Assembly: GCA_951406725.2 (NCBI GenBank)
Contig: OX597814.1
Coordinates: 159,092,001-159,156,000, forward strand
Direction of reading: 5' to 3'
Origin: Octopus vulgaris
Taxonomy: Eukaryota
Length of the DNA: 64,000 bases
The position numbers and the translations under genes are program-made. Shown one piece after another: positions 556-63,135 of the stretch (the first letter of the stretch is position 1; each line of letters begins with the position of its first letter). Under the pieces are notes generated by a model. The model did no database searches. It had not been told where the DNA came from and saw only the letters and a list, made by a program, of their open reading frames with translations.

Positions 556-585
556 CTCTGGGACGCTCTTCCTGCGTCACAATAT
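556..585 (-). CDS. micro-exon [11 protein letters not shown]
   Basis: ttaatttcacag|30 nt|gtgagc. Confidence 0.85.

Positions 586-63135: not shown

Follow-up and report, generated by a model that had tools for sequence, protein, structure and literature searches.

The locus analysed here raises the question of whether a regular series of very short open segments bounded by splice signals belongs to a real gene of Octopus vulgaris and, if so, which gene carries it and what the encoded repeat is for. In the window, i.e. the whole 64,000-nt stretch of DNA that was analysed (positions 159,092,001–159,156,000 of contig OX597814.1 in the 2.8-Gb genome), an earlier note had described 62 phase-1/1 micro-exons on the minus strand between 556 and 63135, consisting of 61 exons of 30 nt and one of 24 nt with AG/GT ends, and a recount gave exactly these numbers. 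The outermost exons lie at 556–585 and 63106–63135, all 62 together amount to 1854 nt or about 617 aa, and once joined they contain no stop codon, as had been stated; the peptides quoted in that note are those of the first six exons, in order. The final base is G in 59 exons and A in three, and with G or A at every exon end the split codons at the junctions can never be stops (18 of the 18 possible junction codons of the array are sense codons). The donors read GTGAGT (21 exons), GTAAGC (17), GTAAGT (12), GTGAGC (6), GTATGC (3), GTGAGA (2) and GTAAGA (1), and the introns between the micro-exons measure 288–4673 nt with a median of 633 nt. Long AT-rich microsatellites of up to 686 nt, e.g. at 24504–25189, occur in these introns throughout, and transposon-like ORFs, recognised by eye, in the flanks.

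The number of such segments was compared with that produced by splice signals on their own, using a pattern of YAG, n nucleotides with an open phase-1 frame, and GTRAG or GTATG, for n = 20–40 on both strands. On the minus strand this pattern matched 62 times at n = 30 and 0–7 times at each of the remaining lengths, while the plus strand gave no match at n = 30 and 30 shuffles of the window gave a mean of 2.5 and a maximum of 6 at that length. A scan for AG-[n]-GT exons showed a sharp minus-strand excess at n = 30.

The count of 62 is exact for the window, but the array runs past both of its edges. In extended window coordinates, where negative numbers lie before the first base of the window, it spans 233 kb from +107,059 to −126,131 in the flanking DNA, the window covering about a quarter of it, in the middle. 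The catalogue of the array lists 262 exons (254 of 30 nt, five of 27 nt and three of 24 nt), one or two of which may be false, and three further exons were recovered via orthologous models, resulting in about 264 micro-exons and, if all were included, up to about 2,640 aa. Most of them belong to six types that follow each other in a fixed order and thereby form a super-repeat of 60 aa, in which a type is occasionally missing and a few blocks diverge; the repeat of the O. bimaculoides model also has a period of 60. Within the window and on the minus strand, a complete six-exon super-repeat of 60 aa is found at 57868–63135 (exons at 63106, 60111, 59753, 58681, 58232 and 57868), and a divergent five-exon block, whose paralogues lie beyond the window edges at about +84 kb, −14 kb and −33 kb, at 20125–23713. 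The latter includes the single 24-nt exon (23316–23339, 8 aa), and a unit of the same 8-aa type is present in XP_052826240.1, a RefSeq model of 5,671 aa named 'obscurin, partial [Octopus bimaculoides]'. Two tandems of same-phase Ig exons flank the array, and ten extra 30-nt proline-rich exons are scattered among those downstream.

By the pattern of substitution, the micro-exons are real coding exons of one gene under purifying selection, all of them symmetric, as had been proposed; dN/dS, the integrity of the splice sites and the orthologous models all support this. Pairwise dN/dS between distinct exons of the same type was 0.25 in the window and 0.26 in the whole array (0.12–0.60 by type), identity between paired array exons was 0.87, 0.93 and 0.72 at the three codon positions, and 270 pairs showed an identity of 0.85 in the exons vs 0.41–0.44 at 31–60 nt into the introns, all of these figures being descriptive because exon pairs are not independent. 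A search with exon sequence only (up to five mismatches) returned 271 copies, 266 with both splice sites, five that had lost one or both and none with a stop, and no copy on the plus strand. Dead or damaged copies lie at −57462, −61386, −24313, −143098, −151584 and −154026. The same dead GG donor is found in two neighbouring units, and this unit was therefore probably duplicated after the donor had been lost.

With regard to the gene concerned, the domains encoded on either side indicate that the host is the octopod obscurin/UNC-89, with the array in its N-terminal Ig region. All host exons are on the minus strand, and the non-array domain exons are located outside the window. Upstream, the O. 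bimaculoides model has 18 matches of exon size between +209.6 kb and +112.5 kb, most of them I-set Ig domains, the last one at 112,479–112,745; downstream, about 20 Ig exons (−132,243 to −183,985) are followed by an SH3 exon (−191.6 to −191.9 kb), a DH domain (Pfam RhoGEF, from −199.6 kb) and a PH domain (−209.4 kb), identified by Pfam in that order. After the PH domain come a 12-aa repeat in a single exon (−216 kb) and further Ig domains, then 14 Fn3 exons (−229,000 to −401,600), a first kinase (−424 to −430 kb), an Ig domain and a second kinase (−449 kb), the Fn3 and kinase domains again being Pfam assignments; an Fn3 domain ahead of the second kinase was not found in the 3′ host region. The earlier note had suggested a look for Ig or Fn3 exons in neighbouring windows, and both kinds are there, as in a giant Ig-domain muscle protein. 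The Ig exons adjoining the array are 267 nt long and in phase 1/1 like the micro-exons, a phase shared by the intervening Ig exons with located ends between the array and the SH3 exon.

The best PDB match of the SH3 exon is the obscurin SH3 domain 1v1c (E 1e-19, next best 4e-6). The best solved matches of the DH fragment are Trio and kalirin, and obscurin's GEF is itself placed in the Trio/kalirin subfamily by PMC10118190. Trio or kalirin as the host was rejected, given the obscurin-type SH3 domain and the fact that XP_052826240.1, as far as it was scanned, reads as Ig tandems. A separate titin-like gene ending before the SH3 exon was also rejected, since XP_052826240.1 joins the array and SH3-DH-PH in one chain and in the same frame, as was a stand-alone gene of the micro-exon gene (MEG) type. 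The kinases and the rest of the 3′ part presumably lie on the same transcript as the array. Including that part, the host would comprise about 350 exons over about 660 kb, a rough lower bound made up of 18 + 35 matched intervals, 264 + 10 micro-exons and 26 exon-sized 3′ matches, and micro-exons of 24–30 nt account for about three quarters of these by number, not by coding length.

Some further features of the host were observed. Among the 14 Fn3 exons there are gaps of 60–75 kb; two Fn3 domains are described for human obscurin A (PMC12812942), far fewer than in the octopus. A second, degenerate SH3-like segment apparently precedes the obscurin SH3 domain, both near −189,000 and in XP_052826240.1, and annelid and deuterostome matches also align in two or three stretches. 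A run of 100 N interrupts the second Ig tandem (−145074 to −144975), and exons may be missing there. The downstream 12-aa repeat is proline-richer and sits in one exon of about 1 kb, i.e. the opposite design to the micro-exon array. The gene models start with an I-set Ig domain (XP_052826240.1 and P0171 are marked partial) and the host is a RhoGEF/kinase giant, both unlike what would be expected of a secreted or membrane protein with a signal peptide.

XP_052826240.1, which was reached by searching with the last upstream Ig exon, has the domain order Ig, array, Ig, SH3, DH and PH. It contains 92 array units, 90 of which align in order to O. vulgaris exons, including the rare variants and the 8-aa unit. 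In the window, 35 of the 62 exons (63106 to 27036, i.e. 27036–63135) match its units one-for-one and in the same order, three of them with low scores because the model units differ in length there; these 35 are part of a run of 55 consecutive exons of the O. vulgaris order that the model carries gap-free. The remaining 27 window exons (556–26668) have no counterpart in the model, falling in a gap of 29 exons, and resemble the block just downstream of the window, of which they are probably a duplicate. In Argonauta hians, two models carry the array, one of them with a five-exon unit. The expectation that gene predictors would miss or mis-annotate such exons was borne out in part: XP_052826240.1 joins 92 units, but is itself a partial model, and those of Argonauta are split models that apparently contain errors. 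The models of both species presumably rest on transcripts.

Outside the octopods, the last Ig domain of the cuttlefish model CAE1238872.1 (Sepia pharaonis) is followed by a short stretch that is acidic and rich in S, T and E and holds a related motif at a spacing of about 10 aa (residues ~536–590), and on this single weak gene model the array may extend to decapodiform cephalopods. Among proteins of up to 2000 aa, a search with the SH3 exon yielded no longer relative, one with the array region picked out just the two Argonauta proteins from 7,999 scored candidates, and the ESM Atlas gave no usable array match, blanks that are not proof of absence. Eight SH3 matches were looked up; six were named, and none was from a mollusc. 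When 19 other long proteins were checked in their three longest non-Ig stretches, 18 had no short-period repeat and one, a fish obscurin (P0088), had a repeat of period 12. Since gene models can omit micro-exons, protein comparison does not fix the age of the array. A literature search of main texts, mostly outside the subscription journals, found no description of an octopus obscurin micro-exon array; the accessible text of 10.64898/2026.09.05.749416 does not mention obscurin or unc-89, and that of PMC11703226 holds nothing on the octopus obscurin gene.

Comparison of repeat units shows that the array changes in length by tandem duplication and loss of units consisting of exons plus introns. 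Within the window, a six-exon unit of 5.06 kb, its introns included, has recently been duplicated in tandem (2918–15603, minus strand; 96.7 % identical over 7.7 kb), and units of about 4 kb between −43 and −126 kb are 94–97 % identical. At −43 to −126 kb, 118 exons have no counterpart in XP_052826240.1, from which alone skipping and absence are indistinguishable. In addition, one pair of gene models indicates that array length is probably also changed by splicing. A second O. bimaculoides model, P0001, is identical to XP_052826240.1 over the first 1683 aa, after which the two diverge: following the last Ig exon, P0001 enters an eight-unit block, of which six units have O. vulgaris counterparts (+107 to +101.7 kb), while XP_052826240.1 jumps to an exon at +81,635, i.e. 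25 positions further on. The two other P0001 units were sought between +106,250 and +103,650 and were not found (best 4 of 9 residues). This pair is the only sign of alternative splicing in the array, and the difference could reflect an assembly gap or different assembly versions. A search of sequencing runs with the host 3′ exons had no RNA run among the matches listed and was uninformative either way. In principle, about 264 exons in the same frame would enable splicing to set protein length in steps of about 10 aa, and the tunable length proposed in the earlier note is a plausible hypothesis, with combinatorial skipping of single exons as its conjectural part.

If fully included, the array would consist of 24 % E, 16 % T, 15 % V, 9 % S, 7 % R, 6 % I, 4.9 % P and 4.3 % K, with a net charge of about −0.15 to −0.16 per residue. 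Hydropathy was 0.41–0.43 in the four arrays tested, below the charge-hydropathy boundary, which lies at 0.47 here. P, E, V and K together reach 47.9 %, mainly Glu and Val, and so exceed the 40 % that serves as the cut-off for PEVK regions in 10.1101/2024.09.30.615857. When model P0172 was scanned with Pfam for PPAK-type modules, the families returned at E≤0.001 were Ig-type or spurious only, and their best stretches all began after residue 480, beyond the array.

We therefore favour, with a probability of roughly 0.55, the reading that the array is an acidic, natively unfolded, extensible spacer of adjustable length similar to the PEVK spring of titin. This preference is based on its charge-hydropathy score and composition, on its PEVK-like position between Ig tandems and on the existence of an entropic spring elsewhere in UNC-89. 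The segment, rich in Glu, Thr and Val, would act in series with the Ig tandems and determine how far the N-terminal arm reaches and how compliant it is, while the end bearing SH3-DH-PH and the kinases would sit on the thick filaments. At 0.35 nm of contour length per residue (10.1101/2024.09.30.615857), a single exon would contribute about 3.5 nm, and inclusion of all of them about 0.9 µm. Muscle types might, more tentatively, splice blocks or single exons in or out. Against an unfolded spring speak the low proline content (4–5 %, with 37–41 % beta-branched residues, unlike a typical proline-rich spring), a period-2 alternation of charge and the beta structure predicted by AlphaFold2.

Other explanations have to be weighed against this spacer. 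That the array is a non-functional tandem DNA repeat with splice-like signals by chance, or an artefact of assembly, is very improbable: near-identical tandem units do occur in parts of it, and assembly copy number can err there, but the dN/dS of 0.25, the restriction of conservation to the exons, the exon-by-exon order shared with O. bimaculoides, the presence of the array in Argonauta and the public gene models all argue against it, and adjacent units differ by 3–6 %, apparently more than sequencing error would produce. Chance or satellite DNA was likewise rejected. An essentially constitutive array, included almost in full or skipped as a whole region, deserves more attention, although we consider it unlikely. 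Its length would be tuned in evolution by duplication and loss, the symmetry of the exons merely making such changes harmless. This would fit the 55 consecutive exons retained gap-free in XP_052826240.1, the highly similar 5.06-kb and ~4-kb units, the 29 + 118 O. vulgaris exons absent from that model and the dead GG donor copied in two neighbouring units. The strong donors point the same way: 62 of 62 in the window are consensus-like and only nine have TGC upstream, which fits constitutive inclusion. On the other hand, the O. bimaculoides models continue from the last Ig exon along two different routes, and a repeat can also grow within a single exon, like the 12-aa repeat of the host, so that 264 separate exons would be more easily explained by a use in splicing.

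A further alternative, also improbable in our view, concerns the fold rather than the splicing and holds that the array forms beta structure, either as a two-sided beta-solenoid in which each super-repeat makes up a rung or as a tandem beta-zipper on a partner, in which case exons of 10 and 8 residues would keep the in/out register of the strands under any skip pattern. In line with this, 99 %, 77 % and 80 % of the 30-nt exons have a charged residue at module positions 0, 4 and 6, respectively, V, I or T occupies positions 1, 5 and 9 in 62 %, 67 % and 80 %, the residue count is even in 257 of 262 exons, and proline-free runs cluster at 19 and 35 residues. The charge at position 0, though, is forced by the G|AA splice junction. 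The alternation of charged and beta-branched residues has period-2 z-scores of 9–23 against shuffles in four arrays from three species and is absent from the 12-aa repeat of the host, but these scores are inflated because the repeats are non-independent. AlphaFold2 predicted strands of 16–24 residues for O. bimaculoides (pLDDT mostly 55–67) and reached a pLDDT of 75.8 and a pTM of 0.66 for Argonauta, with long strands that turn at proline exons in both species; only one of five models was confident, however (pLDDT 75.8, 50.3, 46.8, 46.1 and 38.3), and according to PMC11795689 AlphaFold2 yields such solenoids for meaningless repeats. Foldseek returned nothing at E≤0.001 for either AlphaFold2 model, and the structural neighbours (VIA), beta-solenoids, were weak, the best being CsgA (Z 5.2, rmsd 8.5, 80 aligned) and SufB (Z 4.9, rmsd 2.4, 106 aligned). 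The net charge of −0.15 and the charge-hydropathy score favour disorder instead. It is tempting, if rather far-fetched, to take the beta structure further and to envisage a splice-programmed structural ruler, in which folded rungs chosen exon by exon from about 264 cassettes would set the length and stiffness of the obscurin arm for each muscle type, pairs of 30-nt exons would form beta-strands of about 20 residues, the register would survive any skip and proline exons would place the turns. If true, such a ruler would be unlike the disordered PEVK spring and would offer a molecular route to the differing mechanics of arm, mantle and sucker muscles.

Returning to the extensible spacer, our data suggest that an adjustable spacer resembling that of titin arose in octopods within obscurin, a different giant protein, and with a finer step size. 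The host's lower bound of about 350 exons is close to the 363 of human titin (PMC12198301). Moreover, the array offers a natural test of how the spliceosome copes with 30-nt exons that are nearly identical and number in the hundreds. It likewise suits the testing of annotation pipelines, as the public models examined are partial or split.

Compared with obscurin/UNC-89 of other animals (human OBSCN, C. elegans unc-89 and Drosophila Unc-89), the octopus gene shares SH3-DH-PH, Ig and Fn3 domains, two C-terminal kinases and the principle of one Ig domain per symmetric exon. Its Ig tandems before the RhoGEF domain are an arrangement that PMC12812942 assigns to the chordate type. It differs from them in the repeat of about 2,600 aa that micro-exons encode within the N-terminal series of Ig domains, in the 14 Fn3 exons that follow PH and in its lower bound of about 350 exons, human OBSCN having 119 (PMC12812942). 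The shown entropic spring of UNC-89 lies between the kinases (10.1101/2020.04.03.023374), and its KSP region follows the Ig domains downstream of PH (PMC2120741). In the MEGs of Schistosoma, to which the earlier note had likened the array, symmetric exons of ≤36 nt likewise follow one another and can be left out without a frame shift (PMC8293314), and the 262 catalogued array exons of 24–30 nt have the same design, MEGs being defined by mostly symmetric exons of ≤36 nt. The likeness ends there, since the products of MEGs carry signal peptides, are secreted or membrane-bound and show raised dN/dS (PMC8293314), whereas the array forms internal repeats of a cytoplasmic giant under purifying selection (dN/dS 0.25).

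The other analogy drawn at the outset, with the PEVK exons of titin, proved to be the right one, as both in titin/Sallimus and here a low-complexity, Glu/Val-rich segment lies between two Ig tandems of a giant muscle protein. Vertebrate PEVK modules are about 28 aa long, whereas those of the octopus have 10 aa, are low in proline, high in threonine and strongly acidic and are ordered in a six-exon super-repeat. In the fly, PEVK sequence is encoded by very large exons (sls exon 32, for instance, with 1,700 aa; 10.1101/2024.09.30.615857). Stiffness and sarcomere length depend on which PEVK exons splicing includes (PMC7274174; 10.1101/2024.09.30.615857), and the octopus would have arrived at a similar device in a different host, i.e. 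in an obscurin with SH3-DH-PH and a double kinase and not in titin/connectin or Sallimus.
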